Assembly (NCBI GenBank): GCA_951406725.2
Contig: OX597831.1
Span: 62,310,001-62,374,000 of the forward strand
DNA length: 64,000 nt
DNA from: Octopus vulgaris
Taxonomy: Eukaryota
Direction: 5' to 3'
Part shown: positions 6,801-62,099 of the stretch, piece by piece
Layout of the letters: every line of letters starts with the position of its first letter
Position numbering within the stretch: position 1 is the first letter of the stretch
Made by a program: the position numbers and the translations under genes
Notes under the pieces: model-generated
What the model saw: the letters and a program-made list of their open reading frames with translations, nothing else
Databases searched by the model: none
What the model was told of the DNA's origin: nothing

Positions 6801-8361
6801 TTCGCCATAAGAAATTTTGCAAAAAAGTTTGAAGCTAACTTTCCAGGAATTCTGGACTTTTCAATCGTTTGATGTTCTTCAGAAGAGACAGAATTCTGAG
6901 TAAATGTGTTTCTTTCATATGTGCTGATAATGATATAGTTCCTATGGAAGCAAGGTACCTTATCTGAAACTCCTAAGTTGTATCTGGACAACGCTTGTAT
7001 GTACACGTGTAAGGATAATGGTAAAGAAGTTTTAGCAATATAGCCATGTTCCTTTAAGATAACGTGTTTGAATAAGGGTACAGAAGAAACAATAGGAGAT
7101 ATATTACCGAAGCAATCTGCATATCAGATTTTATAATTATAAATCGGAAAATTCCCCATCTTTACGGGATTCACAATGTACCTAGTAGTTTCTCAACTAA
7201 ACATGAGATAGATTTAGTATATCAGAGGACAACTCATATTGGTCTTTTGAACAATGAATGCAATCTGTTTTGTGTCGAACCAGAGAAGGAGTTTCCATGC
7301 AGTAGTTCGGTTGCTAAAACTAACAGCCAGCATATATCCTTTACTTCTTATTTTGCCGTCATATATATACCGGATATTACATTCCAGTATAGTCAACCAT
7401 TTGCAGAAATAATATGTCAAAATAGATACCAAAACGGAAATAGCTTCAATGCTGATCAAACGGGTCAAGTATGATAAATACATATATTTTAGCAATATTT
7501 ATGTATTATACATACCTGCTGACGCAAAAAGATAGCGATGTAAAAATGTATACATAGCCTCTAACGCCTCAAGTTGTGAAAATGTTTTTTAAATGATGGA
7601 ACCAAATATTTTCAAGCAACACAACTAAAGAAGAACCCCCTCCCAGTAACATACGGTGCAGAAGGATTTATTAAAACACGAAATAGTTCTGTTATCATTC
7701 TTCAAGCACAACAGGACCACAAATTACTTGCGAAATTCCACACGAAAGTAAATAAGATATCAAGACACTTGAGTAGAAGAGTAGCGGTTTTTAAATTTAT
7801 ATTTGTGGAATTAAAAATGTTATCCTCGCATACAAAAATTTATGTGGCGGCAGTTCAGAAACATCTGATACACTCAGGATGCTGTACATCTAATATAACT
7901 TGTAAGCGTGTGAAAGAAAGTGATATAATATATCACCATAGAAAAGATTTCATACACAAAAGCCCAAATCTAATATATATATATATATGACATACGATAC
8001 TTGATAAATAAGATACGATAACGCTCTAGTAATTTCAGAGTTTAAATGAAAATGTATAAATACAGTGAATGAAGATATATAAAAACATATGTGTGTGTGT
8101 GTTTATGTGTGCTATTATGTTTGTGTGTGTGTATGTATGTATGCATATATACATGTTTGTGTTTGTGTATGTATGGATGCATATATATTTGTGTGTATGT
8201 ATCACTTTTATTTGGGTCGAGTGATTCTTTCGCCTGTTGGTGCACAGAGTCTACATTGTGCAACACCAGAAACACAAATTTGCAAAGGACTGTCTCTACC
8301 GAAGTGAAAATACTAGAATCTACTGTGGCATCGACTAATCTTTACGTGCGCGCGCACTCAC

Positions 8362-27004: not shown

Positions 27005-27152
27005 AGATGTGGCTCTGTGGTAAGCAGCCTGCTTCCCAACCACATGTATGCGGGTTCAGTCCCACTGCGTAGCACCTTTTTCGAGTGACTTCTCAGGCTA
27101 ACCAAAGCCTTGTGGGGGAGTTGGTAGACGGAAACTGAAAATAGCCCGTCGT
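27005..27152 (+). mobile_element. tRNA-derived SINE (family C), uninterrupted copy
   Basis: tggctctgtggtaag...gggttcagtcccactgcg...ggtagacggaaactgaa. Serves as the empty-site reference for the split copy at 57266-59527. Confidence 0.8.
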
Positions 27153-27182: not shown

Positions 27183-27378
27183 ATTTATTTTATAGAAGGA
27201 GCTTCTACAGGACTAGAACTGTTTCATTCAGAAGAAATCATCAGGAAGCTTCCTGATGATTTCTTCTGAATGTAAAAAGTTCTAGTCCTGTAGAAGCTCC
27301 TTCTATAAAATAAATTAATTTAATCTGCTATGTATTGAGTACCTTATTTACTGTGGTTAACCCGGACTCAACCCAGGA

Positions 27379-29335: not shown

Positions 29336-29379
<44 letters not shown>

Positions 29380-29380
<1 letters not shown>

Positions 29381-29767
29381 TATATAGAAGGAGCTTCTAC
29401 AGGACTAGTACTGTTTCATTCAAGAGAAATCTTCAGGAAGCTATTTAACAAGAATTGTATTAGCATTTATACATTTAGGCAGGTTTAAAGGAGTGGTGGT
29501 GGGGGACTTTTTGGGGGTAGGCATAGCGCAAAATATCATACTTGGGGGAGTGGTCAAGGAGTCAGTGGTAAGTTAGATGAAAGAATAGATAAATAAAAAA
29601 ATATAAAAATAAAAAAATTAAAAATATATATAAAAAATATATATATAAAAATATATATATAAAAAAAGGGGGGATAGAGTTATAGGTAAATAAGGAGATT
29701 CTCACTTATACCTATACACACATGTATACGTATCTACACACACATATATATATACACATATATATAT

Positions 29768-29818
<51 letters not shown>

Positions 29819-30262
29819 CACACATACATACATATCTACATACACACATACATACACCCGCCCACATATACAAATTTATACACATGCACATGCCTATACC
29901 TGTCTACACATACACACACGTATATATGCATACACTCACTCCCATGCATGCACGCATACACACATGTATATATATATATATACCCACGACCACACATACA
30001 TATATACACATAAAAATATATATTCATACGCACATACACTCATGCACACACAACACACCTAGTTCCCTATATACACATATTTACACCTATATATACATAC
30101 ACCCACATACACCTATGTACATATATATATATATATATATATACATATACACGCATACATATATATACATGTGTGCACATACATACATACACACATATAT
30201 ACATACACATACACATACACATGTGTACCTATACATACCTACACATACACACATACATACAT

Positions 30263-30297
<35 letters not shown>

Positions 30298-30914
30298 CCA
30301 ATACAGGCCCATTCCCTAATTTTAATTTTATTATCTTCATTTATTACTTTTGTTATCTTTGATCGCTAGAGCTAAGAATCCTGGCAATGGCTGCATGTCC
30401 ATTTGTTTGTCTACTAGAAGGCAAGTACTCATTCCCGCACGCACACTCATTAGCACGTACATTCACCCATTCGTACACTCATACACATACACGTACGCAC
30501 GCGTTATATTCATACATACAAACATCTACATACGTTCACGTATATACACATACGTACTCGTACCTACAGATTCGTGTCTACACTTTAGGAGGCTAGTCTA
30601 TACATATACACCAATAAATATACATATATATATATGTACACACATATACATACACACACACATATATACTCCTACATACAGATACATACCTATATATATA
30701 TATATATATATAAATACATATATATATACATACATACACACATACACACATACATATACACATACATACATACACATATATATACATACACAAACATATA
30801 TACACACATATATATATACATACACACATACACACATACATACGTATACATACATACATACATCCATACATCCATACTTACATGCATTTATACGCATACA
30901 CACACCCATCTATA

Positions 30915-30951
<37 letters not shown>

Positions 30952-31231
30952 TCACACATACATATACAAATCTACGCACACACATACATACATACACGTA
31001 TACACATACACGCACATACACATATACATGCGTACCCATACACGTGCACACACGCACGCGCATCCATATATATACACACACACACATATATATACACGTG
31101 TGCAAGCATACATACATACTCATACGCGCACACATACTTACATATACATATATGCACACACTTACACACATATATATACATACACATATACATGCATACA
31201 TACATATATGCATACATACACACACGCACTC

Positions 31232-31240
<9 letters not shown>
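29380..31240. repeat. Left arm of ~1.86-kb inverted repeat (3' end of PLE)
   Basis: Reverse complement of 34871-36735, including unique islands (the same ORF-track peptides [12 protein letters not shown]... and [12 protein letters not shown]... occur on both strands). Confidence 0.95.
29392..29442 (-). ncRNA. Minimal type I hammerhead ribozyme (PLE 3' pseudo-LTR)
   Basis: Minus strand reads agcttc-CTGAAGA-tttc tctt gaat-GAAA-cag tactagtc ctg-TA-gaagct. Core is intact, stem I is 6 bp, and loop 3 contains the palindrome ACTAGT. Confidence 0.88.
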
Positions 31241-31292
<52 letters not shown>

Positions 31293-32505: not shown

Positions 32506-34647
32506 TCAATCAGGTTGCCGGGTAGGTCTATAGTTCTTGTAGTTCGCATACTTCTTATGCATGCAATTTGGGGAGTGTTCTGAAAATTTGTTAAGGAGAG
32601 GGCCTTTGGCGAACAAGATCTCTAGGCTCTCTGATATGCATAGGTCACAGCAGGTATGTCCTCCTGTGTACGAGCGCGCCTTCTGTAGTAGTTTCCACTT
32701 GGTCTTGAAGGGGATTGAGTTCCTTTTAAGGTACCAGATGTGGGCGGCGAGGGTAGTTTGGTTGGATTTATCCTGTCGCCGGAACGAGTGTGTATGTGCG
32801 TACCAGCGGGTCTTAAAGCTGTTTGACGTCATTCCAATGTAGGATTTACTTTTATCGTCAAGGCCTGATCTTACCTCGCATTTATATACTAGGTCCCTCT
32901 GTAGGCAGTTGTTGTTGAGGGGGCAGGTGGTTTTATCATGGCAGTTGCAGTTGCTATCGGACGTTGGATGGGCCCCGGAGAAAGTAGATATGTTAAGTTT
33001 TTTCACATTGTTGTTGGCTAGGTTCCTGGCTAGGTTGGGCGTGGTAGAGTAGGAGAGTCTAATAGTGTTCTTATTTAGGATAGTGTAGTACTTATGTTGG
33101 GTGGGGAAGTGTTTCTGTAGGAGAGTGAAAAAGATCTTAGCTACAGGTGTAGCGACCTCACGGTTGAAGGGGGAGTTGTACCAGCTAATGTGTCTTCGTC
33201 TATTTTTCCTGGGTTGGCGTGGGGCTATACTAGTGTAGGTAATCTTATCTTTAAAACCACTGCGGGCCAGGGCCTCGTTGTAATAGGGGGCTGCGGCCTT
33301 AAAGATATCTTCCGTGGCGGACAGGCTAGAGATTCTAATTGAGACACTTTTTACTAGGTTATCTAATATATTTCTGGGGTGGTTGGAATTGATATCTATA
33401 TATCTAAGGGATTCATTTGGTTTGTGGTACGGGTAATAAAGTGAGGTTTTTAAGTCGAGGGTGACATCTAGGAAGTTAGCCTTTGTTAAGTTGGATTCTA
33501 GGGTAATCCTAAGGCCTAAGTTTTTAAAGAAGGTGTGAAGATTTTTCCGGAACCCATCCGTGGTCCTGGGGTTTATATTGTGGAGGGCGAAAAGGCCGTC
33601 ATCTCGGTAAAGACCACCGGAGAGGCCTGTGAATAGGGTTTTCAGCCTATGGAGGATGAAAAGGCCCACTAGGTCACTTATTTCAGCAGAGTCGTTAGCA
33701 CCCATGCTGACGTCGAAGGGGGTCACAGATTTTTTGTTGATCCAGTGGGATCCGTCATAGAAAAGAAAAGTCTTACGTGCGTGGAGGATCACATCTTGCT
33801 CGGCCTCGGTGATGGTGGAGGACCTCCTGGCGAAGTTAATCGCATTGATCAGCAAGCTCTCCGATATAGAGGCGTAGTAATCCTCGATATCCAGTTGTAG
33901 GAATCGGGTGTTGCTTTTATTTGGTAAATCCCGGAACCAAGTTATTGCCTCGGAGGTCCTATTCCAGAGTGGAAGGGGTGAAGCTTCACGCATTTTTGGT
34001 AAAATCCTGTCCAGGATCTTCTTGCTGACGGATCCGATGTCAGACTTGGTTGGGTTAATCAAACGGACCGACGGTTTATTTTCGAAATGGTCTTTGTGGT
34101 CTTTCAGGGTGAAGTGTGGGGACTTCACCCTCAGGGGTTCTGTTCGGTCGTCGATTTTAAGGGAGGTGGCAATCTCTTTCCCGGCCAAGTTGGTTTCAGT
34201 TAGCGCTGCGTCGTCTACTTTCTTGTATTTAGCTGTGATGGCGTTATCGGCTAGTCTATTATAGGTATCCGGAGTCACCGCGTAAATATTTTTTGTCTTG
34301 TCCGAAGGGACATGGAGGTTCTGGGAGCTTTTCATTTTCGAAAGCTTCGCATTCAGTTCCGTTTGGAAAGGTAAGTTGACTCTCCTGAATTTGATGTTTT
34401 TTATCATGAGGAAGAGGTCTTCTTCAAACGGTTCAAGTAGGCTGTTGGTAGGAGGGGCCTTATTTGATTTGAAGCCGTACTTATCATTACTGGTAGATGC
34501 TACATCAGGGTTGTCGAAGAAGAAAGATCTCCATCGAATTCTTTTGATGAACTCATCAGTCCGTCTAATGAGGGCTTTTTGGTACTGTTTCCTTGGTGGG
34601 ATAGTAATGTTCTTCAGGGAAGTGTCGAGGTCGATTCTTGTCAGCAT
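32506..34647 (-). CDS. Penelope-like element ORF: reverse transcriptase + C-terminal GIY-YIG endonuclease (probably Hydra-clade PLE), 713 aa, uninterrupted
   Basis: RT motifs LQLDIEDYYASI, FDVSMGANDSAEISDLVG, GLYRDDGL and ANFLDVTL. Linker CNCHDKTTCPL (CxCx5C). GIY-YIG LVYKCEV...SYIGMT...FKTRWYAH with CDLC and LLNK. No stops or frameshifts. Confidence 0.95.
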   Translation of the reverse strand: MLTRIDLDTSLKNITIPPRKQYQKALIRRTDEFIKRIRWRSFFFDNPDVASTSNDKYGFKSNKAPPTNSLLEPFEEDLFLMIKNIKFRRVNLPFQTELNAKLSKMKSSQNLHVPSDKTKNIYAVTPDTYNRLADNAITAKYKKVDDAALTETNLAGKEIATSLKIDDRTEPLRVKSPHFTLKDHKDHFENKPSVRLINPTKSDIGSVSKKILDRILPKMREASPLPLWNRTSEAITWFRDLPNKSNTRFLQLDIEDYYASISESLLINAINFARRSSTITEAEQDVILHARKTFLFYDGSHWINKKSVTPFDVSMGANDSAEISDLVGLFILHRLKTLFTGLSGGLYRDDGLFALHNINPRTTDGFRKNLHTFFKNLGLRITLESNLTKANFLDVTLDLKTSLYYPYHKPNESLRYIDINSNHPRNILDNLVKSVSIRISSLSATEDIFKAAAPYYNEALARSGFKDKITYTSIAPRQPRKNRRRHISWYNSPFNREVATPVAKIFFTLLQKHFPTQHKYYTILNKNTIRLSYSTTPNLARNLANNNVKKLNISTFSGAHPTSDSNCNCHDKTTCPLNNNCLQRDLVYKCEVRSGLDDKSKSYIGMTSNSFKTRWYAHTHSFRRQDKSNQTTLAAHIWYLKRNSIPFKTKWKLLQKARSYTGGHTCCDLCISESLEILFAKGPLLNKFSEHSPNCMHKKYANYKNYRPTRQPD

Positions 34648-34778
34648 TTTTCTTGGTGATGGTTATAAGGGCACTAGGGTGTGCTAAGATATGTAGGTCC
34701 CGGGTTGATTCGGGGTTAACCACAGTAAGTAAGGTACTCAATACATAGCAGAGTAAAATTAATTTATTATATAGAAGG

Positions 34779-34829
34779 AGCTTCTACAGGACTAGTACTG
34801 TTTCATTCAAGAGAAATCTTCAGGAAGCT
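34779..34829 (-). ncRNA. Minimal type I hammerhead ribozyme (PLE 5' pseudo-LTR)
   Basis: Identical to the 29392-29442 motif, ~130 nt upstream of the ORF ATG in sense orientation. Confidence 0.88.
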
Positions 34830-34870
34830 ATTTAACAAGAATTGTATCAGCATTTATACATTTATACATT

Positions 34871-35376
34871 TATATATATGAGTGCGTGTGTGTATGTATG
34901 CATATATGTATGTATGCATGTATATGTGTATGTATATATATGTGTGTAAGTGTGTGCATATATGTATATGTAAGTATGTGTGCGCGTATGAGTATGTATG
35001 TATGCTTGCACACGTGTATATATATGTGTGTGTGTGTATATATATGGATGCGCGTGCGTGTGTGCACGTGTATGGGTACGCATGTATATGTGTATGTGCG
35101 TGTATGTGTATACGTGTATGTATGTATGTGTGTGCGTAGATTTGTATATGTATGTGTGAGTGTGTATATATATATATATATATATATACATATATATAGA
35201 TGGGTGTGTGTGTATGCGTATAAATGCATGTAAGTATGGATGTATGGATGTATGTATGTATGTATACGTATGTATGTGTGTATGTGTGTATGTATATATA
35301 TATGTGTGTATATATGTTTGTGTATGTATATATATGTGTATGTATGTGTGTGTATATGTATGTGTGTATGTGTATG

Positions 35377-35434
<58 letters not shown>

Positions 35435-35823
35435 TATGTATCTGTATGTAGGAGTATATATGTGTGTGTGTATGTATATGTGTATATATATATATATGTA
35501 TATTTATTGGTGTATATGTATAGACTAGCCTCCTAAAGTGTAGACACGAATCTGTAGGTACGAGTACGTATGTGTATATACGTGAACGTATGTAGATGTT
35601 TGTATGTATGAATATAACGCGTGCGTACGTGTATGTGTATGAGTGTACGAATGGGTGAATGTACGTGCTAATGAGTGTGCGTGCGGGAATGAGTACTTGC
35701 CTTCTAGTAGACAGACAAATGGACATGCAGCCATTGCCAGGATTCTTAGCTCTAGCGATCAAAGATAACAAAAGTAATAAATGAAGATAATAAAATTAAA
35801 ATTAGGGAATGGGCCTGTATTGG

Positions 35824-35858
<35 letters not shown>

Positions 35859-35971
35859 ATGTATGTATGTGTGTATGTGTAGGTATGTATAGGTACACAT
35901 GTGTATGTGTATGTGTATGTATATATGTGTGTATGTATGTATGTGCACACATGTATATATATGTATGCGTG

Positions 35972-36002
<31 letters not shown>

Positions 36003-36304
36003 GTACATAGGTGTATGTGGGTGTATGTATATATAGGTGTAAATATGTGTATATAGGGAACTAGGTGTGTTGTGTGTGCATGAGTGTATGTGCGTATGAA
36101 TATATATTTTTATGTGTATATATGTATGTGTGGTCGTGGGTATATATATATATATACATGTGTGTATGCGTGCATGCATGGGAGTGAGTGTATGCATATA
36201 TACGTGTGTGTATGTGTAGACAGGTATAGGCATGTGCATGTGTATAAATTTGTATATGTGGGCGGGTGTATGTATGTGTGTATGTAGATATGTATGTATG
36301 TGTG

Positions 36305-36359
<55 letters not shown>

Positions 36360-36735
36360 GTGTATATATATATGTGTGTGTAGATACGTATACATGTGTG
36401 TATAGGTATAAGTGAGAATCTCCTTATTTACCTATAACTCTATCCCCCCTTTTTTTATATATATATTTTTATATATATTTTTTATATATATTTTTAATTT
36501 TTTTATTTTTTTATTTTTTTATTTATCTATTCTTTCATCTAACTTACCACTGACTCCCTGACCACTCCCCCAAGTATGATATTTTGCGCTATGCCTACCC
36601 CCAAAAAGTCCCCCACCACCACTCCTTTAAACCTGCCTAAATGTATAAATGCTAATACAATTCTTGTTAAATAGCTTCCTGAAGATTTCTCTTGAATGAA
36701 ACAGTACTAGTCCTGTAGAAGCTCCTTCTATATAA
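34871..36735. repeat. Right arm of ~1.86-kb inverted repeat (inverted PLE 3' copy)
   Basis: Matches 29380-31240 in reverse complement with only a few substitutions and (TA)n length changes. Confidence 0.95.
36673..36723 (+). ncRNA. Minimal type I hammerhead ribozyme (inverted PLE arm)
   Basis: agcttc-CTGAAGA-tttctcttgaat-GAAA-cagtactagtcctg-TA-gaagct read directly on the + strand. Confidence 0.88.
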
Positions 36736-38012: not shown

Positions 38013-40130
38013 CCTACACAAATGTATTTTTGTTTTCTGTACCTTTGAACTATATATGTATATACGCACACATGTATGCCAAAACCTGGAGTCATGTAAT
38101 ACAAGCAAATTACACTCAAGTACATTCAATTCACATAGTAATGTAAATATATTTTTATTCTTTCCGTTGTTCCATTGCAGCAATCAATCCAAGTGTCGCG
38201 TCATTTTGTCGCTCGCCATCCCATCATTCATATATCATATCTCCTAGCTATATCTTTAATATCATGGAAACGCAACATAATATACAGCGTCAGAATATGA
38301 GGTCTTCTTTTTTCGTCCTCCTTCAGACTGTTTTTTCTATTTAGCTTAAATACATAAATCTCTAAGTTGTGAAAATATATACCATTGGCACAAAATTAAG
38401 CAAAATATATGCATTTCTGTATAAGTGATCATGGTGCGTCACCTGCCTTCTTCGCTGGTTTATGATTATCATATATATGTAGATTAAGTAGTGTTGAGTA
38501 AATGTATACTGAAATATCTAGAGTATTTGAATCTGATGAACGTCTGTAATTCCTTACTGCGAATAGGATCTAATTCAAGTGACAGCATTTATCGAAAATC
38601 TCAAATTTGTCACTCTTTTATCAATCAGAATTTTGGGTGAAAATAGTATAAAAACCTTCAAGTGATTTCACAATATACATGCTATATTTCCGTTGGTATC
38701 CATTTTTAGATAATTTGAAAAGTGACTTCGTAGATACCGTGTGCATTATGGATTTTAACATAGTTAAATAACATACCAAAATCCCTGTGCTCAGTTAGTG
38801 ATGAAAGAAGTGCGACTGTAGTAAACATATATATATTTAACTTCAACATCTCGATATTCTGGTATTTGTTTCTAACAGAAAATCAAGAGTGTATATTGTA
38901 TTATCTCTATTTACAGATGCATTTATTTATAAACGCAACGGTAGAAACAATCTTGACTAGACTTTCGAAACCATCAGTCGATACATGCATCATTTCAGAA
39001 ACATTCTTTGATTGATAAACGTGTAAATGTGGAATATCAAAACGTTATTCAGCTATGTATAGAAATTCAAATATTGCGGAATTTACTCAGATAAGAACTG
39101 AGACATTATCGAACGACAAAAGCAATATATGCACGTAAGAAATGATCTTGCTTCTTAGGCATTTCATGGGGAAATTCATAATAATAAACCTAATAGAAAG
39201 TGGAGAACCATTAAAATTCCAAATCCAACTATTTAAATAACTGGAGTCGATTATAAAACTGTTCTTTTATCATTTTCAACAAACATAAAATCTAATAAAA
39301 TGGATGAAACATATCAAAATAAAAAGCGATTATTAATATGTCAGTTACTTTTAAAGTTTTCAGATTTTGAGAGATATCCAGAGTTGACAAAACTCAGTGT
39401 GATGTAGAACCTAAGTAATCAACTCATGTAAGACACCTAACACTATGCTAAAAGCATTAGGAACCATATCAGTATACTGGAATATGTTTGATGATAAGAT
39501 GATGTTAGTAAAACGAACCAGTGCACTTATTCGCCAAACCTAATCTCTTTCAGACTATACAACTTTATATGAATGGGTGGTTGCGTATCTGAATGTGAGT
39601 GTGTGTTTTCAAAGGTCTGTCACGTGTCTACAGGTTTAAAAGAAGGTGTTTTTTTTAAACCGAAAATGCAATTAGACACTTCACCTACACGAAAAGGGGA
39701 ACGGAATCGACTCCATTTATATGAACAGTACACGGGATCGATACTATTGTCGTGATACGCATTTCTATGCAATGGGACTATAAGATCACTGGAATAAAGA
39801 GATTCGCTCAAGACCACACAATTTCAGGTGATCAAAAGACAAATACACTAATCCCTAGTTTACCTCACTTCACATACACAGGTTTACCCATAACAAACAT
39901 AAACATAATGTTGCTGATACACACGCACATAAACACACAAACATATTTATATGTTGTAGAAATATATACATGCATACATGAGTATACACAAGCACAAACG
40001 TTGCACATATACATATATATTATAATTTCAAAATAGGATAAAATCTTCATAAGAATTTGTCAAGTAGTTAGCGTGAGAAACTTCATAAGAGGAAAATACA
40101 TCATTTTTTTCTTTTAAATTTATTTATTTA

Positions 40131-40505
40131 TATTATATAGAGGGCACTATTACACATAGATGCCTCACGCTAGGAGTGACACTTAAAGTCAAAACTACTA
40201 AAATAAGCAAACACGTTGTACCGAAACAATTCTCGAAGCAAGTCATCTATAAACAGAAGTTAGTCACATATCACACTGTGTTTATTCATTATATATCTTG
40301 AATTATGCACACACTGAAGAGTAAAGAGCGAATATTATTGCACTGACTACGAAATCACAGTGTGATATGTGGTTAAATTCTGTTTTGAGATGGCTTGCTT
40401 CGAGAATTGTTTCGGTACAACGTGTTTACTTATTTTAGTAGTTTTGACTTTAAGAGTCCCTCCTAGCGTGAGGTATTTATATGTAATAGTGCCCTCGATA
40501 TAATA
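40131..40505. mobile_element. Fold-back element (~150-bp inverted arms 40131-40283 / 40352-40505) containing a hammerhead, PLE pseudo-LTR-like
   Basis: Arms are reverse complements with scattered mismatches, and the left arm stops inside the HHR sequence. Confidence 0.8.
40310..40371 (+). ncRNA. Type I hammerhead ribozyme
   Basis: caca-CTGAAGA-gta[24-nt loop]tac-GAAA-tcac agt gtga-TA-tgtg. Confidence 0.75.
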
Positions 40506-40594
40506 CACATATATATTATATATATACACATATACATACATATATGTTATACACATATACATTATGTATTCGTATATATATACATTATGTATTC

Positions 40595-44538: not shown

Positions 44539-45896
44539 TATTTAAAAGAGTTATGGATTAAACTGGATACCACTCTAGCAGTTACAGGAAGGTATTCAAC
44601 AGATAGACCAAGAAATCTGTGTATTCCACATCTAATTTGCTGATAATTTAGCTATTGTTAACATTAAGAAATTAAACACTATAAGGAATTACGAATCTAC
44701 TTGTACTATTTCAGGCAGAAAAATACCAATGTAGGTCAGCTATAGATAATATATCTGATGTAATTATTTATGATGATGAGAGCAATACAATGTCTCCTCA
44801 TAATAATAACATTAGTAGAAATAAAATAAAGTAAATACCTTATGATAGTCAAACATATGTAACTGTGCAGCGTTGGAAGAATAATTTGCTTTATAAATGC
44901 TCGGTTCAAACATTAGGAACTACAGCCTTCAAAGTAAAAAATCACATAACATAACAGTGTTAATTACAAAAGAAAAGTCCCCGGTGCTTGCCTTGATTGG
45001 TTCATTTAGGGAGTAAAAGAAGAAAAAATATTAACTATCCAATTTTACTGCCAATTATACTTAGAGACTCTGTTAAAATTTGTTTCACTCATCAGTAGCG
45101 GTATTTAAAATCTTCAAATGTAGGTGAAATAGTTATTATTCCGTTGTTCTCTCATCTTAAATAGAATACTCTTAAAATTTCCACATGACCATTTAACACA
45201 ACTAACTTATATCGATTTAACTAATATTACTGATAGTGTTCTTACCTATAAATCCTCCCACCACCACTTGACTTATCTCAGCTAGTAACCCATTTCTTAA
45301 CTAACGTATCTCATTTAATACTTGCCTATTGTATCTATTTTACGTTCAGTGTAATTTAATTGCAGCGAATACAGTATTATGTTGGATTGATTACTCAGTC
45401 GGAATATATTCTGAGCTTTCATTCTAATGGAAACTTCCATATTTTTTCTTCATTCAATTTAGTTCTATCAACTCTTTATTATATACTACTACGATAATCT
45501 TTCTTTTATAATATTCCTCTTTTATTGGCACTTCTGACAGTATCATACAAAACAGAAATTCCTTAACAATTTTACTATATCCCGTAAATTTCTTTTTCCT
45601 CGCCACTGCACTTCAGTCAAAATTAACAAACGCTTAACCTCTCAGTCAAAAAGGGAATGATGGTTATGTATTTAGATCAAAGAAAATATTCTGATACATA
45701 CCTCATCGTCATTGTTCATTGACTGAAACATCTCCTGTATTGGGTAGACACCGGCTGCGTAATATATATTTGTCATATATTCTATGGAATAAATTTCGTT
45801 TTTGGATTTGGTTTGCAAGACTCTTTATGAGTTCGTGCGTTGAAGCATATTCTGTTGTGTCTGGGGAGAGTAATTTTCGTTTTGTGCCTTATTTTT

Positions 45897-46006
45897 TAAC
45901 ACACTCACCGGTAAAATTTCCACTTTTTTTCTTATTTTTATTTTCCTAAAATTTTGGGAAAATAAAAATAAGAAAAAAAGTGGAAATTTTACCAGTGAAT
46001 GTGTTA
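45897..46006. repeat. ~110-bp near-perfect palindrome
   Basis: taacacactcaccggtaaaatttccac...cctaaaattttggg...gtggaaattttaccagtgaatgtgtta. Confidence 0.9.
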
Positions 46007-46469
46007 TATTATCAGGCACAAAAAAAAATGACTCCCCAGACGTGACAGACTATGGAATAAAATCTTTCACTATATTTGTTAAATTTTCTGAAAATGTACA
46101 CAAGTAAATTTAAGTGGTCGAATAAGATGGCTGCAATTAACTTCCTTAATTCATGAAAGTGATGAAATTCATACAGTTTCCGATTTTGTTCACTAAACAT
46201 TCTCTTTGCCAGTTTCTTTTGCATGGCATGCTTAGCGGGCAATTACCGCAGACATTTACTTCCGCACCGTTGAATTATTGTGCACCAGAAAGACTATGAT
46301 GTATATGGGTAAAGGGAGAGCAAATCTTGTTTTTCTTTCTTTTCTTTCTGTTTTATAAACTATTTGTCTTCTCGAACTACTTTTTGCATCAACGCTTTTT
46401 TGTTTACCTTATTTTTGAATGTGCAAGCGTCCTGGTTTTCAAATAGGACAAAACATGTGCTCTGAGCCT

Positions 46470-47275
46470 GAAATTTTTTTGATCTTCGTCTACCCTTATT
46501 TTGAGGGGACGGAATGTTTCGCCTTTGTATAACCTACTACAGCTGCATGGGATGGAATACACGCAGTTTTTGGTCGTTTTCACTTCTATTGGTAGTTTTA
46601 CTCAAAGGACATATTTGCTAAGTGAATACTGTCCTGATGTCATATGGGCTGCATATCTCTTGTATCTTTTCAGAGAGGCCTTCCAGTTTGGGTAGACAGA
46701 CTTTGGACAGTTTATCGGTTTCATCTCATCTTTTCTTCATAATATGAGTAGATAGCATGCTTTTGGGGTATTTAGTGCGCTTAATAGATTGTTTAAGCTT
46801 GATCATTATTAAGTGTGTATCACGATTGCTACTTATATTATATGCATGATGTTTTAGGCACTGATCAATCCCTTTCTTTACACTGTGTGGATGGTGGGAA
46901 TTGAAGTTTAGGTATCGTCTAGTGAAGGTCGGCTTGCGGTATACGGATACCCTGTATCCATACTTGGTGCATGTTATTAATACGCTCATGAATGCTAGCT
47001 GATTGTCTCCTTCTTTTTCCATTGTGAACTGTATGGATGGATTTATTGAATTCACATGATCTAACAGCACTTTGACAGACATCTTCTCGGAGAGGACAGA
47101 GTATGAAGTTTTTATCAACATAGCTCAACCATAGGGTTGGTTTTAGTGGTGTTGATCCCGAAGAGAAATTCGCAAAGTATCCCATGTATATATTGGCTAT
47201 TATCAGTGATAATGGCGAACCCATTGCTAAACCCTCTTCTTGTCGATATATATCAGGAAGGTATATCAGTCGAAA
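46470..47275 (-). pseudogene. Degraded Penelope/Poseidon-type PLE (RT, thumb, GIY-YIG)
   Basis: YRQEEGLAMGSPLSLIIANIYM, NSINPSIQFTMEKE, VYRKPTFT.RYLNFNSHHP and NCVYSIPCSCSRLYKGET, with frameshifts and stops. Confidence 0.88.
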
Positions 47276-48016
47276 CGTTAACAACAAACAAGATGAGGAC
47301 AAATATCCATCAAATGTAAGTCATGTACATAATTACTCATCTCTTAAATATAGAACTGTAATATATATATCTGTGTGTGTGTGTGTGTGTGAAAGGAAAA
47401 AATGGAGGAATTTATATATGGAAACATTAATTATTTGAAACAATTGCAATTTCAGACAATATCAAAGTCATAGTACTTACGCTCGTTTCCATGCTAAAGT
47501 TAATAATAAAAAAAAATTCGAGACTGATAATGAATATAGCTGAACGTTAATGCTGACATCTCTTTAAGAGGTATTTATATCCTCGAAATAATTCATATAT
47601 ATATACATATACAAATACACTCGCACATTCACACGCACACACATATGTATGTAGGCATGTATATACATATATATATGTTGATTTGTTCTTCTGTCTCAGG
47701 ACACAATTTGTTTTGTCATAGTCAATAATGAATCTAATGTGCTTTGCTATTTATATACTCTGGAGTATTGGCGCATGTGAAGTATGAAAACAATAGAAAT
47801 ACCTAGAACACAAATACAATCAATTTGCTTCGCAAGAGCGCTTACAAATCGGATAACACCATTAAAGTTTTAACGTAAAATATTACCTACGGAAATTAGT
47901 TGCTATACTAATTACGTGGCTAAATATTTAGTTGTTATATAGAAAAAAATATTTTGTTCAAAGCAAATACAGAGAACATTCGACCAGGTTGATATGATTT
48001 AGAATTAGATCGTGGA

Positions 48017-48054
<38 letters not shown>

Positions 48055-48081
48055 CATATATATATATTTCCCCGATCTAAT

Positions 48082-48140
<59 letters not shown>

Positions 48141-48156
48141 TCTATATAAGGGGATG

Positions 48157-48209
<53 letters not shown>

Positions 48210-48299
48210 ATGTGTGTATGTGTATATATGTGTGTATGTATGTATTTATATATGTATGTTCGTAAGATAACATACAGAAGATAAAAGATATATTTCAAA

Positions 48300-49260
48300 T
48301 TTCGCCCATGTGCAATTTCATTTGCAAGTGGTTTGCATTTCTCAATCATTTCCGGTTTTTTATTATCCACTCGTTCATCTCCAGGTGAGGCAATGTCTAT
48401 AACCTTGCTTCTTTTTTGGGGTGTTATCAAATAAAGGGATGTCTGGTCTCTGAGCATCAATCCACGAATCATACTGAATTGTGAAATCTCACAAGATCTT
48501 GTACCCATTATTTTTGGTGATATCGTCAAGTTTAATTTCATACTATTTGAAAATCTTTCAATCGCAATTTATGAGACTCTTTCAATTTTTATTCCACAAA
48601 TCCTACAAAGTTATGCGTTAATACTGTTATCTATCTGGAATTTGCTGTAACTAGTTCTCAGAGAATGGTCCTCAACGCTGCATATGAATGCCTCAGCTCA
48701 TCTTTTCCGATCACTGTTCGTTACCCACCTCCAATTCTTGGACTAGTCTTTTCCTTTCATCTTTCTGAGGTATTATCCATGGATAGCTATCAATCTCCAG
48801 TTGTTCAATGTTCTCCATCTTCTTTCCGAAATTCGTTTGGGTGTCATATTTTCACTAGGTATTGCGTTTCTATTTCTAACAGCAACAAAGAGTCTATGAA
48901 TCTGCTGTTTACCCTGTCATTCCAGAGCATTTTCCCCTTGCATCCTTTGAGACTGCTTCTTCATGGGTTTCTAAATACATATAATCTATCGGCATCGCAG
49001 TTCTGGTGCAGTTCTGATTTGATTATCATAAATTTCTTGTTTTTGCTACCCATTTCCTCAAGTTCGTTCTCTCTCCATCTAACAGCATCTGTACCACATC
49101 ACAGTAATGAGACAGCGCATGTATTCATTGCCCTAAACTTGTTCTTTCCATTGAGACTATTCTCCATAATTAATTTCGTTCGCCTAAAATTACCTTCCTT
49201 TCACTCAGATTGATTTTTGCCTTAGTCCAAAATACCCAGATATTTGCAACTCAAAACTCT
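48300..49260 (-). pseudogene. Degraded R4/Dong-like non-LTR retrotransposon (RT C-terminus, CCHC, restriction-like endonuclease)
   Basis: KYLGIL, FRRTKLIMENSLNGKNKFRAMNT, DADRLYV, CRICG and VIDIASPGDERVDNKKPEMIEKCKPLANEI. Confidence 0.8.
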
Positions 49261-54705: not shown

Positions 54706-55150
54706 GGCATCGAAAAAAAATGCTATGGAAATACCATTAAAGCAAAGGGAAATTACTGTGTGATTGATCGTTATTACGACAAAAGTGCTATTAGAATGAC
54801 CGCTAAGTAAGGGGAGGGTGTAAAATTAAGGGAGTATAGATGATCATATTAATCGGGTAAGCACGCATGTTCATACATATACATGCGCTCGCACACCCAG
54901 GTGCATGCGCCTATATGTATATACTCATCCACACTTTCTTGAAACACACACATGCTCACCCACACATAAGCCAAAAAATATAGACATACCCGCATACACG
55001 CTCGCACACAAACAGAAACATGTGTGAAAAATGACATAACTTAAAAATCAGTTTCAGCTCAACTACTAATCTTAAAAATATAATCGCACACAACACGCAA
55101 AAACCACAATATGAATAGATAAAAATTTGTGCCCGTAAAATGGAGCTTGC

Positions 55151-55591
55151 ATGTCCGAGACCATCATTTATGAAGCCACCGTCGACTCTATATCCACTAA
55201 GGACCCGATTTCGACGAAGAAATACGTAGGCCTTACAGAGGGTAATTTCAAGGCCAGGTTCAACAATCTCACCTTGTGCTTCAGGCACTGGGATAAAAGG
55301 AAAACGGTCAAATTATCCAGTCATATATGGTCCTTAAAAGATAAAAGCTACATGGTCCATTGGAAGAACTTAGCCAAGTGTAAGCCCTACACCAATGGCA
55401 GTGGAAAGTGCGATCTTTGTGATATGGAAAGATGGCTTATCTGGAAAAGCAGCTTAGACCCCACCACATGTCTGAATTCAAGAAATGAACTTTTCGGATC
55501 ATGTCGTTATGTGGCTAAATATTTATTATGTTTCTCCCCACCACCCAAATTCCGAGCCTTATACGTAGAGAATACAAGAAAATTACCATAG
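55151..55591 (+). pseudogene. 5'-truncated PLE: GIY-YIG endonuclease fragment of the same clade as the intact element but a different family
   Basis: IIYEATV...KYVGLTEGNFKARF...LSSHIWSLK...KPYTNGSGKCDLC...LNSRNE aligns by eye with the C-terminus of the 713-aa ORF. Confidence 0.85.
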
Positions 55592-56288: not shown

Positions 56289-56703
56289 TGTCAGGATATG
56301 GAATATGTATGCAATGTATTATAATTTCTATTGTTTTGACATTTATGCATGGAGTTGAAATATATTTTCTGACATAATTTAATTCGTTCAGTTCTTATAG
56401 TCTCTATCTCTCTCAACTATATATATTTCAACATTCTCTATAGAATATTTGACAATGGTAACAGGGTTTGAAATGTCAAAACTGTTGCAGCATCAATTCA
56501 AAGATTGTAAATATATCTATTTCCGCTTCATCTCCTTGAAGTACGCTAAATTTTTTTTTTTCCGAAATGAAATACTCCATAAAATTCAACTGGTAATATT
56601 TAGTGCGAAAGTATTATCCTTTTGAATTATAAATTATTATGAATTACGATTTAAAAGCAGCTCTAGTAAGTGTAAACGTTATCGATCGCACAATAGGTAG
56701 GGC

Positions 56704-56795
56704 GCATTCCTCGGACGCTATCTCAACAGCAAATTTAACGAATGAATAAGTATTAATTCGTTAAATTTGCTGTTGGGATAGCGTCCGAGGAATGC
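56704..56795. repeat. 40-bp-stem hairpin with 12-nt loop
   Basis: gcattcctcggacgctatctcaacagcaaatttaacgaat / attcgttaaatttgctgttgggatagcgtccgaggaatgc, with one G-U on the + strand. Confidence 0.9.
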
Positions 56796-57051
56796 TACCT
56801 ACTTGATGCCGAGTGTTAAACACACTTGAATGTCACAGACCAAGCGGGGCGATTTGCCTCGGAGTCACCATTAATGAAATACACCGATATTTCGACATTA
56901 TTGTGGCTTATCAGATCCATGTACATGGATTATATCGAAAAGAGATCAACTTGCTGAAGTGCTGTGGTGTAGTCTTCAGAGCTGCCCGCGGACGCTAACC
57001 TGCAGCATATTTTGTGCATAAACAAAACACATGCACTATGTTTACATTACA

Positions 57052-57219: not shown

Positions 57220-57268
<49 letters not shown>

Positions 57269-57390
57269 CGGGCTTCTTTCAGTTTCCGTCTACCAAATCC
57301 ACTCACAAAGTTTTGGTCGCCCGGCGGCTATAGTAGGTGCCACGCAGTGGGACTGAACCCGGAACCATGCGGTTCGTAAGAAAGCTACTT

Positions 57391-59491
57391 TATTTCAAAA
57401 CATTTGCCATAAAGGCAGTACACAGAGTAAGTTAGCTTTGCGGGCTGGACGAGGACATTAATGAAAATGAAAGATGATGGGGATGGGAGAAGACAAAAAG
57501 CGCCCGCCGACTTTCGCTTCTCTAAAACATTGTTCTTTTTAAAGATAAACACAAAACGAGGTATTAAACCTCTTACAATTTTTTCAATTTTTGGACTTAG
57601 CAGTCTATTACTAATAATAACAGTTCAATAATTACATATCGTCCTCGAAATAACTTGTGCCCGCGCCCTCCACCATCCACCACGCCTCCCTCAGAACGTA
57701 ATCAAGTTCCGAGTTAGCGTCGCCCGGGACGAAGTTATAATCTTCATTGAGCTCCTTCAGCCCAAGCGTCACGTCGAACGCCACGGCCTCCACAGCTATC
57801 TGCGGAGGCCATTCGGGGTCCTGTGTGAAGGCTAAAGGTGCTCCCGTGTGGTGCTCTTCCATCACCTTCTCAATTTCTCCTCCTCTATAGAAGAGGACCA
57901 ATACGTTCAATTCTTTCGTTGGCGGCACAGTTCCCGCCAACGGTATTCCTTCTCTTGTCGGTGGCACAACCCCAACCGACGTAGTTCCGGGACATTCCGG
58001 TACTATGTCACCGACAGCCGGTAATGTCCCGTTTTTCTTCCTCTTTTTATTATTTTTCCCTTTTCAACTGAGGGAGGTTGCGTCTCCTCCGTGGCTGGAA
58101 GATTCGCGTTTCTCTCCTCATCCCTATTATCCTTTGGTGAGCACCCATTGTTGCTCACCTTCCTCTTTCGGCCTCTGTTTGAGGAGTCCTCTGCTTTCTC
58201 GGCAGTTATCATTCCCTCTTCTAGAGGGGTTTTACTTAACTGTTCCGGGATCCTATTTTGTTCCCAGGGACAGTTCTTCTTTATGTGGCCGGACTCCAAG
58301 CACCGATGAACACTTAGGGGGGCGACCCTCAAGCATCACCTGGTACCTGCACCCGGCCATTTTCAAAAAATCTGGAAGAACCAGATTGGCTGATTGGGTC
58401 CACAGGGTCAAAATTGCTTTTGACCCAACCCAAGCAGCCGCAGGAAGAACTTTTACATTGAGGAGCTTAGTTTCGCTGCCACCCAGACCTCCTCTATCCA
58501 CTCGGGTTCTATCCCGGGTGGCAGCCCGCAAATCCAAGCTTTCATCAATTTCTTTTTTTTGTACGTGGGCAGGAATAAAATTTCCTTACCCTCCAGGGGT
58601 TTCCTAGCAAATTTACAAGCCTCTTCAGGGGTGTCAAATAGCACCCCTAGAAATGAATTTAATTGTTGGCAAATACTCTTCCAACTTTTTTTCAATTGCC
58701 GTCTTTTCGAATAGGGCGATGGTGTCGAGTGCCTTGGAGTAGGTTCTCAACACCACCGTCCTATCTTCACGGTCTTTTAACCACTTTTTAGGCGGTATGA
58801 TCTCCCATTCCAAAAGTTTGTTATTTTTCATTGCCATGTTTTTTTTTGTTTATTTGTTTTTTTTTTTTTGTTTTTTTTTAAATGTATTCAGAATAAAACG
58901 AGAAGAAAAGGAAATCAGAAGAAAGTCACAGTGAAAAAAGGAGAAAGTCAAATAAAGTTAAAAAGAAAGTCAAATAAAGTTGAAAAGAAAGTCAATAACA
59001 CAGCAAAAACCTTCTGGCCATTCGGTACTCCCGGCCTAAATTGAACTAGGAACGCCGCAACTGGAACACAACTTCCACAAAAATTGGTGTAAAATTGGTA
59101 AAAATTGTTCAAACTTCGGAGGCAAAATACTCTCCTATATAGCAGTTTTCACAATTCATAAAAGTTCTTCACAGCACAATACAATTCTCACAATTAGGTG
59201 AGAAAAATTTCACCAATTTATCGGAGACGGATACGCCCCCCAAAAATTTTCTCAATTCAACGAGAAAAATATATTTGCTCCATGTCGGCAGAATCAGAAT
59301 TCTGAATCCAGTAGGACTTCCTGCCTGTAAAAAACAATTTTCACCAAAAACTCCCACTGGACCAAGAAAACAGAATCTTACCTTACAATGGGGTTTCCAA
59401 AATTTTCAATTCAAGACGGCTTCAAAAGCACGTCTTCACCGCTTCAGTGCCAAATACAACACTGACTCGCACATGCGCAGACGCAACTGTT
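57391..59491 (-). mobile_element. ORF1-only non-LTR retroposon (L1/Tx1-type gag-like, HAL1-like organisation) inserted into a SINE
   Basis: 12-bp TSD ag(a/c)aagctactt at 57379-57390 and 59492-59503. ~650-bp 5' UTR, a frameshifted ORF1, a 3' end at AATAAA, and no RT. Confidence 0.8.
57632..58837 (-). pseudogene. Frameshifted ORF1/gag-like protein (~400 aa) with CCHC zinc knuckle
   Basis: Consecutive ORF pieces join as MAMKNNKLL... / VLFDTPEEA...ICGLPPGIEPEWI / YQVMLEGRPPKC / (x)RCLESGHIKKNCP / an acidic C-terminal ~110 aa. Confidence 0.8.
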
Positions 59492-62099
59492 AGCAAGCTA
59501 CTTACCACACATCCACTCCTACGCCTCGTAATTTCATTTACTTCCACATGTGCCTCGCCGTAGTACACCATCGAATAAATTTCACTCCATTTGCATAAAA
59601 TTTTCAGACCGGCAATTCACTTCTTTTCGACATGATCTGAATACATAGTATTGATAATCCACAATGATTTCGAAATATCGGCATGAACCATTCTCGGGCA
59701 TTCCGAGGCTAATTCTGCAGCAAATTGGCGTGTAGACATCACACATACACTATGTATGTGCAGCCGAAAATGTTTATAAAATTACTATTTTTGAGAGGAC
59801 AGACACATTATAAACCATTATATTGTATTAATGAAATTACACATATGCTCGTTATCGTTATCTGTCGCTCCTTCAAGAGCTCAAGTGATTTGATCAATCT
59901 AAGCAGACTCTTCAATTACAATGCAGTATATGGGAGGCAGACATATTGTATTACATGTTGAATCATGTAAACAATCTTCCCTAATGCGGTAATTAAAGGA
60001 AGATTTGGAACTCCTTTTCTCGAGGGAAGCCTTGAAATTGTTCTTCATTTTCCCTCCAGAGATCCAAATTACTAGACATATATAATTATTGGAAATAACT
60101 GCTTACTATTTCAATACCAACTTGAATAAAAACAATGAATTATTGTGATTCTTATCCCTGTCAGCATTATTACAATTATTGAAAATGACCTAACAGCTTC
60201 ACACTATGAAATGTTTGGTTTGAGATTGTATGTATCTATTTATGTATATGTATGTGTGTGTGTGCCTGTATTTCAACAAAAGTTATTACGTGTATCTTTC
60301 TTATTTGTTCTCCTAAGAATAGAAAAAAAAGTAGCACTGTTAATTTTGTTATATAAACATTTATTCATATCATAAATAGGTTTCCAAAATGCCTCCATTT
60401 TTTGGGGATTTTTTTTGCATACACTACTCTCCTCCATATAGTTAACTAACAATATCTTGTATGAATATAGGAATATTGATTTCTTATAACGCTAAAATTT
60501 CATTCATAAATTTAGATAGTTATTCCAAGTGGATTATTCAAATACTTTCTAATATCTTAATTGTTTTATTTAAAATTTTATTGGTGTGTGATGCTTTCTT
60601 TAGATAATCTTACTCTATATTTTATCAAAAGTATCTTGCATAGTTCGAGTGGTTTTGCCTAAGTTGCAATGAAAACAATTACAGATATATAGTCACTTTT
60701 CCATTTATAATTTGACCTTCAGCATTTCTTTCTATAACGTTGAATAGCTAAACTCATATTTCAGTCGCTATTTCCAAACAGGGTTGTACCCATTGTGTCT
60801 CAGTTACCGGCAACTAGTCAATTTGTGAATGCTCTTGGTAAAGTCCGCAAGATGACAAGACAATTAAAAATTTTAGAAATCAGATAACAGATTTTTAAGA
60901 GATTACAAAACGGTACATTTTAAAGATATCAACTCGTTGATTTGCTTTCATATTAAGAAGGCATTACACGTTCACCGACACACCAATTCGTGAATAGTAA
61001 TACCGCAGCCAAATACTCAAATGGAAATAGCTTGAGGCCAGCGAACACTAAGTAGTTGATGACAATAGCATAACAGTAAAATATGAGTGAGAGAAAGAAA
61101 AGATATTACAGATAGACAGACAGACAGAGGGGAAGAGAGAGAGATGGAGTGAAAGGTGTAGAGGGAGGAAGGGAAATAGGATTGATAGATGTTTTGTAGA
61201 GTGTATGTGATAATGTGATATCATGCAATCCATCCAATGAATTTCTTAGGATATGATTTACGATGTCTGAATGTCCCAATAGAACTGTTTCAGATTTCTA
61301 AATGTATTCCTTTGCGAATTTTAATCAAGTTTCGTAGACAATTAGTATTTGTTGGTGGACATTGGTTTGCTGAACAAATATTATAGCTTATGTGAAACAT
61401 TCATTACTATGTTGAATACGTTTGTAGCGATACAACGTGATGGTGAGACCTAGCATTTGCAGCGAACGTGTAATTTCATTTTGCATGCTTTGCAGTATAT
61501 GGTCCGATGACGTTTTTGTTTTCATGTGTAAATTAATATGCTGCTTTGCTGCTTAATCATCTCTGAGCTTCGGCTTCTTATAGAACAGATTTCGATTGAA
61601 GCTTGCAAGGCAGGATTAGTGGGGTTGTGCTTAATCACTTCTCGTATTCATCCAAATATTTTCGGTAAGGAACTTTTTCCGTTGGGACACCATGTGGTTT
61701 TGCACTTGGTACGTTGTTCTTAGTGTACTTGAAACATGTGTGTGGTAGGATTATGGCAATATTGATTTAGAAATGTAAATGTTTCTAAGATTTCTATTAC
61801 CTTCCTAATTTCGCTGATTTGATTATGTTTCTTGCTTCTATTTCCTCCTTGTTTTCTCGTATAGGAGAATGTGATCTATCGAAAGTTTTGATTATCGATA
61901 CGAGGTCTGTATGTATTTATTTTATTATTGCTTTTAGAAATAAGGAAACCAAAACCGTTGCCTCCGTTGTTGGTGCACTTTTTATTCCACTCAATGGTTA
62001 TATTAGTTAATTTACTTTTAAAGCGTAGGCAGAAATGCTTTGATAATTTTATCATGTAACCTATACAATTATTTCATTACCAATACTGAAAAATGTACG

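Follow-up and report, generated by a model that had tools for sequence, protein, structure and literature searches.

The insert at 57391 to 59491 (minus strand, 2.1 kb) of the 64,000-nucleotide stretch of Octopus vulgaris DNA analyzed here (the window, 64 kb) is a retroposon without reverse transcriptase (RT). Our main reading, to which we give a probability of about 0.6, is that it is a decayed, apparently full-length copy of a multi-copy family that encodes only ORF1, likely depends on an L1/Tx1-type LINE for copying in trans, and probably prefers the site just after box A of an abundant octopus-type SINE. The element would then best be read as a non-autonomous LINE of L1/Tx1 type that retains ORF1, in analogy to HAL1, HeT-A, and TRE5-A.2.

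A retroposon that splits a SINE

The insert is flanked by a target-site duplication, found by sequence comparison, with its 5' copy at 59492 to 59503 and its 3' copy at 57379 to 57390 (both minus strand). The two copies agree exactly over 9 nt and, with one mismatch, over 12 nt. The mismatched letter is at 57381 in the left copy, and in public contigs the SINE majority matches the right copy in four of four runs, so that the mismatch represents later decay of the left copy and the 12-bp duplication of the sequence-only reading stands.

When the flanks are joined, they restore a tRNA-type SINE that aligns end to end with an uninterrupted copy of the same SINE at 27005 to 27152 (plus strand). 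The 5' part of the split SINE (59504 to 59526, minus strand) carries the box A-like TGGATGTGTGG at 59515 to 59505; it aligns with 27009 to 27021 and with the empty-site consensus in contig loose ends. The 3' part (57267 to 57378, minus strand) is 75% identical to 27022 to 27150 and carries the box B-like GGTTCAGTCC at 57359 to 57350, followed by a (TA)n run. The insertion point lies immediately past the box A-like motif, with box B on the far side, and the element and the split SINE have the same orientation. The earlier claim that the SINE is split between its two boxes is thus borne out by the end-to-end alignment. The box A and box B assignments in the SINE head follow consensus motifs; the head received no ARAGORN score and no Rfam match. 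In contigs of four runs, the majority SINE body reads TTGGGCAAG, which is close to CCTTGGGAAAG as quoted in a passage of PMC5786205, and OR1 of octopus is named as a tRNA-derived CORE-SINE in PMC4824008. No second copy of the element was found within the window, and no Rfam family, including ribozymes, matched the insert.

The element ends support a retroposon and refine one earlier observation. The 3' untranslated region (UTR) (57391 to 57631, minus strand, 241 nt) ends in GAAATA. An AATAAA hexamer had been reported at this end and is present, but its last AA is contributed by the target duplication, and a poly(A) tail is lacking. The 5' UTR (58838 to 59491, minus strand, 654 nt) has a 5' half rich in predicted hairpins, four repeats spaced by 22 nt at 58919 to 58994, and an A-rich tract before the ATG. 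We also considered an LTR or gag-pro element and rejected it, as there are no long direct repeats at the ends and no protease motif was seen in the acidic frame described below.

ORF1 and its zinc knuckle

ORF1 occupies the zero frame from 58837 to 58003 (minus strand), stopping at the TAG at 58003 to 58005, and has about 289 codons once its lesions are accounted for by tblastn and by alignment with its sole protein relative, Octopus sinensis LOC115225585 (281 amino acids; E 1.4e-26; 1 of 45 candidates). Judged by that alignment, two deletions have shortened this copy, one of about 22 nt near 58645 and one of about 11 nt near 58488, and there is a 1-nt insertion at 58309. The insertion is absent from the majority in runs X7 and X8 and from 39% of the depth in X3; its absence was not seen in X1. 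The relative is 67, 73, 80, and 46% identical to the four ORF1 pieces in the window and is itself decayed, having lost the first cysteine of the knuckle. LOC115225585 (XP_029652367-9) is annotated as a host gene with three accessions. By its sequence, we regard it as the ORF1 of a relative of this element and not as an ordinary host gene.

A single CCHC zinc knuckle after LEGRPPK lies at 58270 to 58312 (minus strand). The LEGRPPKC..C....H....C pattern noted earlier can be read across the 1-nt lesion at 58309, which splits it, with weak matches to Pfam zf-CCHC (E 0.032, below the cut-off) and to the TUT7 knuckle (E 0.0085). Pfam and PDB sequence searches returned only weak zinc-knuckle matches. 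Transposase_22, the type II ORF1 family, gave no match at E up to 10 with either the read-through pieces or the O. sinensis relative; the second ORF1 piece had no relatives in the protein search, and the middle piece had no match in the ESM Atlas. An AlphaFold model of LOC115225585, built from a single sequence or shallow alignment, has a pLDDT of 32.0, with a strand and helix order resembling an RRM over residues ∼27 to 102; a fold search with this low-confidence model gave a best Z of 4.3 and no significant match. ORF1 is therefore identified by its motif layout and its relative, with no significant family or fold match, and poor fold models say nothing about fold novelty. The other half of the earlier claim, that endonuclease and RT are absent, was confirmed by inspection of frames and motifs: neither a long ORF nor a motif for either was found in the three minus-strand frames or the six-frame list.

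The acidic frame and the coding layout

Downstream of ORF1, an acidic reading frame stays open for 143 codons in the -1 frame (57632 to 58063, minus strand). A length of 140 codons was reached by 7 of 2,000 shuffles, and the position bias is coding-like, with G at 0.47 in codon position 1 and 0.14 in position 2. The last 94 amino acids include 20 D/E and 5 K/R, and the stop coincides with a GC-to-AT boundary. A 238-codon plus-strand frame (57891 to 58607) was rejected as a gene, since it is antisense to an A/G-rich coding strand.

The sequence-only reading had described an acidic C-terminal region without a recognized family, and protein searches indeed gave no relative: none appeared in a word-index search of longer proteins, and none at E 0.001 among 1.84 billion representatives. 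The best ESM Atlas match (0.89, amine oxidase clusters) was set aside as below the useful range. The suggested AlphaFold check of this domain did yield a model, but an unreliable one (pLDDT 37.9), and the poor models gave no informative fold match, with Foldseek returning none at E 0.001 and VIA best Z values of 4.3 and 5.8.

Are ORF1 and the acidic frame one gene? If fused, they come to 413 codons, which fits the single ORF of about 400 amino acids proposed earlier. However, the zero frame ends at 58003 to 58005 and the acidic part lies in the -1 frame, which casts doubt on reading the acidic region as part of a single ORF. The offset may be family-wide rather than a product of decay. This would make a two-frame element in which ORF1 (about 289 amino acids) ends past a K/R run and the acidic domain is reached only via a -1 ribosomal slip or re-initiation. 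We place this layout a little short of even odds; it concerns the coding layout only and is compatible with our main reading.

Several observations favor two frames. A G GGA AAA heptamer at 58060 to 58054 (minus strand), in phase with the ORF1 frame and within the K/R-rich run, is a candidate -1 slip site, and three consecutive predicted hairpins follow it at 57917 to 58031 (z -4.0; 0 of 200 shuffles). A 1-nt indel near the K/R run is absent among the 12 of 36 indel rows listed, and 21 to 27 X1 contigs instead carry two substitutions there. With majority letters, the zero frame reads KGKKRKR, equivalent to the tail KGRKRKI of the O. sinensis protein, which ends there. On the other hand, A-runs are mutation hotspots, the O. 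sinensis copy is decayed, the other 24 indel rows lie outside the list, and alignments may be clipped at the K/R run. Four bridging records also have 3 to 7 gap letters of unspecified position, and the first stem begins about 20 nt past the heptamer. The usual spacer from slip site to stem is 5 to 9 nt, which the distance here exceeds.

Site preference in the public contigs

Parts of the insert occur in 20 of the 24 public runs listed, with four organism codes and ten studies represented, and no run holds more than 47% of the insert's words. We aligned contigs of four runs (X1, X3, X7, and X8) to the element; the list names no RNA run that contains the insert, and an RNA origin for X7 is a guess. 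The alignment lists 32 pieces beside a further 164,669 and favors long alignments, and no single record spans the whole element. At the SINE flanks, empty sites filled the tables of joints and loose ends (with a further 1,798 rows), so that loose ends internal to the element were out of view.

Among the 32 listed pieces, two reach the 3' end of the element, and both continue into the SINE at the same site and in the same orientation. X1 record 1 covers 57371 to 57592 (36 other letters, 11 gaps) and runs 20 nt into the SINE, while X8 record 25 covers 57353 to 57592 (38 other letters, 10 gaps) and runs 38 nt into it. Given their shared endpoint, the two probably represent one locus in two organisms. 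They are ∼84% identical to this copy and thus do not come from this insertion. Both leave 114 to 122 letters unaligned beyond 57592; this locus, aligned only over the 3' UTR, may belong to a different, related family, possibly that of the partner. Under uniform insertion, the chance of the same site is 2e-5 to 9e-5 per junction, assuming a genome of 2.3 to 2.8 Gb and 1 to 4 x 10^5 SINEs.

At the 5' end, the diverged records X3 16, X8 32, and X7 24 stop 10 to 11 nt short of 59491, leaving 38, 38, and 29 letters unaligned, with no run into the SINE head. The first two are probably one locus. The 5' junction records give the shared site no support.

It is tempting to attribute the location simply to SINE abundance. 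SINEs make up 11.6% of the O. vulgaris assembly (PMC13282606), and an ORF1-only family with no real site preference would often land in one. The 5' junctions without a SINE head and the single other same-site locus are in line with this. However, abundance explains landing in a SINE and not landing at the same nucleotide in the same orientation (about 1e-4 or less per junction), and no piece among the 32 listed passes from 57391 into a foreign flank. We therefore consider the absence of a preference unlikely, while still giving it some weight. A preference for the site just after box A is plausible on these alignments, with one further independent locus; for comparison, the threshold for target specificity given in PMC4494074 is more than 20% of flanks in one repeat. 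The earlier proposal of SINE-site targeting thus gains a single independent locus, seen at its 3' end, which does not establish targeting; the 5' junctions were uninformative.

A multi-copy family

The contigs also bear on whether an ORF1-only element is the rule or an accident. The depth summed over ORF1 exceeds that of the longest single contigs ∼1,340-fold in X1, 830-fold in X3, and 550-fold in X8; summed contig depth is not a copy number and gives only an order of magnitude, "hundreds or more." The ratio of acidic to ORF1 depth is 0.97 to 1.26 in these three runs and 1.51 in X7. The junction between the end of ORF1 and the acidic region is crossed by four diverged records (from X1, X3, and X8), and that between the last stop codon and the 3' UTR by X7 record 17. 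This supports ORF1, acidic region, and 3' UTR being contiguous in a multi-copy family, as the sequence-only reading had proposed.

Could this copy instead have arisen by a one-off (or minor) internal deletion in an autonomous LINE whose relatives mostly carry ORF2? That case had been named as the one that would overturn an ORF1-only family. In X1, X3, and X8, the 3' UTR is 2.1 to 2.5 times as deep as ORF1, so the tail also occurs in copies without ORF1, either truncated copies or relatives with ORF2, and internal loose ends are hidden behind the SINE contigs. Yet depth is continuous over ORF1, acidic region, and 3' UTR, and other copies bridge both junctions. A one-off deletion is thus disfavored, and we rate it very unlikely.

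The ORF sequences carry a further signal. Twenty differences from the contigs are listed; leaving out the two within the frame overlap, 12 of the remaining 18 fall at third codon positions, as expected if the source lineages were under coding constraint. About 15 differences over the 1.2-kb ORF are near fixed, a lower bound with 179 rows outside the list. The weakest alternative, that the element and the downstream SINE half spread as one read-through unit or as an old segmental duplication from a single insertion, fits the single further junction observed, which is at the 3' end and would be carried along in such a process, but it is hardly credible given that this copy has both SINE halves and the target duplication and that the at least 15 or so near-fixed ORF differences suggest that it is nearer the family majority than is the ∼84% locus.

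The upstream region behaves differently among runs. In X1, X3, and X8, depth drops 4.7- to 8-fold from ORF1 to the 5' UTR, in a step at the ATG; in X7 the two are equally deep (ratio 1.0). On the upstream side, 208 and 133 letters of two diverged records stay unaligned. Together, these observations suggest subfamilies with different 5' UTRs, and 5' UTR swaps are known for L1 (PMC5753468). Searches of metagenome, viral, and prokaryote collections found no related loci, as would be expected of an animal repeat.

A chain of predicted hairpins

Predicted folding of the element's RNA gives a chain of local stems joined by A-rich linkers. Over its length, 21 of 50 overlapping 120-nt segments have z below -2.5. 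In non-overlapping segments of the ORF region (57632 to 58837), the sense strand has a mean z of -2.45 (4 of 10 under -2.5) and the antisense strand a mean of -3.15 (8 of 10). As controls, eight scans of other parts of the window (microsatellite segments skipped), among them the two strands of a Penelope-like ORF, gave 6 of 198 under -2.5, with means from -1.02 to 0.17. Since both strands fold strongly, the signal comes from Watson-Crick inverted repeats and does not show which strand, or whether RNA or DNA, is under selection.

Restoring the majority letter at 29 positions stabilized the predicted fold at 15, was neutral at 6, and destabilized it at 8; against changes of the same letter nearby, the Wilcoxon p is 0.026. 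These positions have a share of at least 75% in three runs and come from the 36 element rows among the 40 of 219 differences listed. The comparison lends modest support to the idea that the predicted hairpins are a family trait now decaying in this copy. Their role might be packaging with the ORF1 protein or shielding from small RNAs, both of which are guesses.

Mechanism and known systems

Drawing on non-LTR biology, we would expect a Pol II promoter in the 5' UTR to drive transcription of the element and the ORF1 protein to coat its RNA. A putative partner ORF2 protein would then nick the SINE bottom strand opposite GGT|AAG, and target-primed reverse transcription would be primed on the short AA overlap at the RNA 3' end. 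An autonomous partner was not retrieved; partners plausibly exist, as 13 of the 80 L1-Tx1 consensus families in O. vulgaris are recently active (PMC13282606, Table 1). The choice of site would likely come from the partner endonuclease, as in Tx1-clade elements described in PMC4494074. Insertion puts 2.1 kb between box A and box B and would silence that SINE copy, and the SINE site would offer the element a very large neutral target pool.

A bolder alternative gives ORF1 itself a role in targeting, for which PMC3159450 (TRE5-A) and PMC5537684 (HeT-A) offer precedent. In its strongest form, this would be a SINE-parasitizing, RT-less retroposon with a hairpin-chain RNA and an acidic domain made by a programmed -1 slip, whose ORF1 or acidic domain steers the partner LINE to Pol III-bound SINE heads and which has knocked out hundreds of SINE promoters. 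We regard this full combination as distinctly improbable.

The more modest reading, an ORF1-retaining non-autonomous LINE copied in trans, is in keeping with an ORF1-like gene without endonuclease or RT, a multi-copy layout, and the marks of retroposition (12-nt duplication and AATA+AA end). The closest comparison is HAL1 of mammals, which likewise keeps ORF1, lacks ORF2, is multi-copy, and has a target duplication (PMC5753468 and PMC5786205). The element is not HAL1 proper, which derives from mammalian L1 and has a type II ORF1: mammalian L1 ORF1 is of the coiled-coil/RRM/CTD type (PMC5203782), whereas ORF1 here has a CCHC knuckle. It further departs from HAL1 in its additional acidic frame, its lack of poly(A), its mollusc host, and perhaps a fixed target, and its L1 derivation is putative. 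PMC5203782 describes an RRM/CCHC-type ORF1 as typical of Tx1 in non-mammalian animals.

The possible fixed target of the element has a parallel in the Tx1 clade. Tx1L, Keno, Kibi/Koshi, and Tx1-Mar use a fixed site in a multicopy RNA gene or another transposon, but these target-specific LINEs encode endonuclease and RT, unlike the element. The targets named in the part of PMC4494074 seen are U2, U5, and 5S genes, DNA transposons, LTR elements, satellites, and microsatellites, and not a tRNA-SINE head. Dictyostelium TRE5-A.2 retains ORF1 with a large ORF2 deletion, as the element does; it is mobilized in trans and targeted to Pol III genes, and its ORF1 protein binds TFIIIB subunits in vitro. 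In contrast to the element, which lies inside a SINE head between the boxes, it inserts about 50 bp upstream of intact tRNA genes (PMC3159450). HeT-A (Jockey) and Ag-Sponge (CR1) are also ORF1-only (PMC5786205, PMC5537684, and PMC4700185), and HeT-A Gag itself supplies targeting for its partners (PMC5537684). Both belong to other clades, and HeT-A adds to chromosome ends without a duplication.

ORF1-retaining non-autonomous LINEs and Tx1 elements that target RNA genes and other transposons are thus already known. The full-text literature searched gave no description of the element family, LOC115225585, or a LINE that targets SINEs in octopus; a family consensus may exist in Repbase, Dfam, or the Zenodo library of PMC13282606. 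The apparent combination of a knuckle-type ORF1 alone, a SINE-head site, an extra acidic frame, and a predicted hairpin-chain RNA in a cephalopod was not found in that literature.

Other elements in the window

The Penelope-like ORF of the control scans is an open 718-codon frame at 32509 to 34662 (minus strand), with RT-like LDIEDYY and YRDDG motifs and a GIY-YIG-like YIGMT motif, which we take to be of Penelope type. It has no relevant Pfam match and lies between inverted repeats at 29380 to 31259 and 34852 to 36735 (1.9 kb, 97.7% identical, largely simple sequence). It is likely a young, intact Penelope copy.

Palindromic MITE-like elements occur at 27183 to 27315, 40121 to 40515, 45846 to 46054, 48001 to 48084, and 56697 to 56802. 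The first follows immediately on the comparison SINE, and part of its sequence recurs at the ends of the large inverted repeats (29375 to 29477, 34762 to 34864, and 36638 to 36735). Decayed retroelement-like frames at 46729 to 47320 (minus strand), 55139 to 55588 (plus), 7580 to 7987 (plus), and 48110 to 48568 (minus) gave no Pfam match at E 0.001 in any of the four cases.

Significance

ORF1-retaining non-autonomous LINEs have been listed for three clades, Jockey, L1, and CR1 (PMC5786205, in the part seen), to which TRE5-A.2 can be added. With its knuckle-type ORF1, an octopus family would represent a further, independent origin of such elements. It also offers a test of why ORF1 is retained when a partner could supply it, whether for cis-packaging, partner help, or targeting. 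The hairpin chain over the coding region and the out-of-frame acidic domain are directly testable features. Should the head of the most abundant SINE of the host prove to be a fixed target, this would be a transposon-on-transposon relation that disables Pol III promoters.
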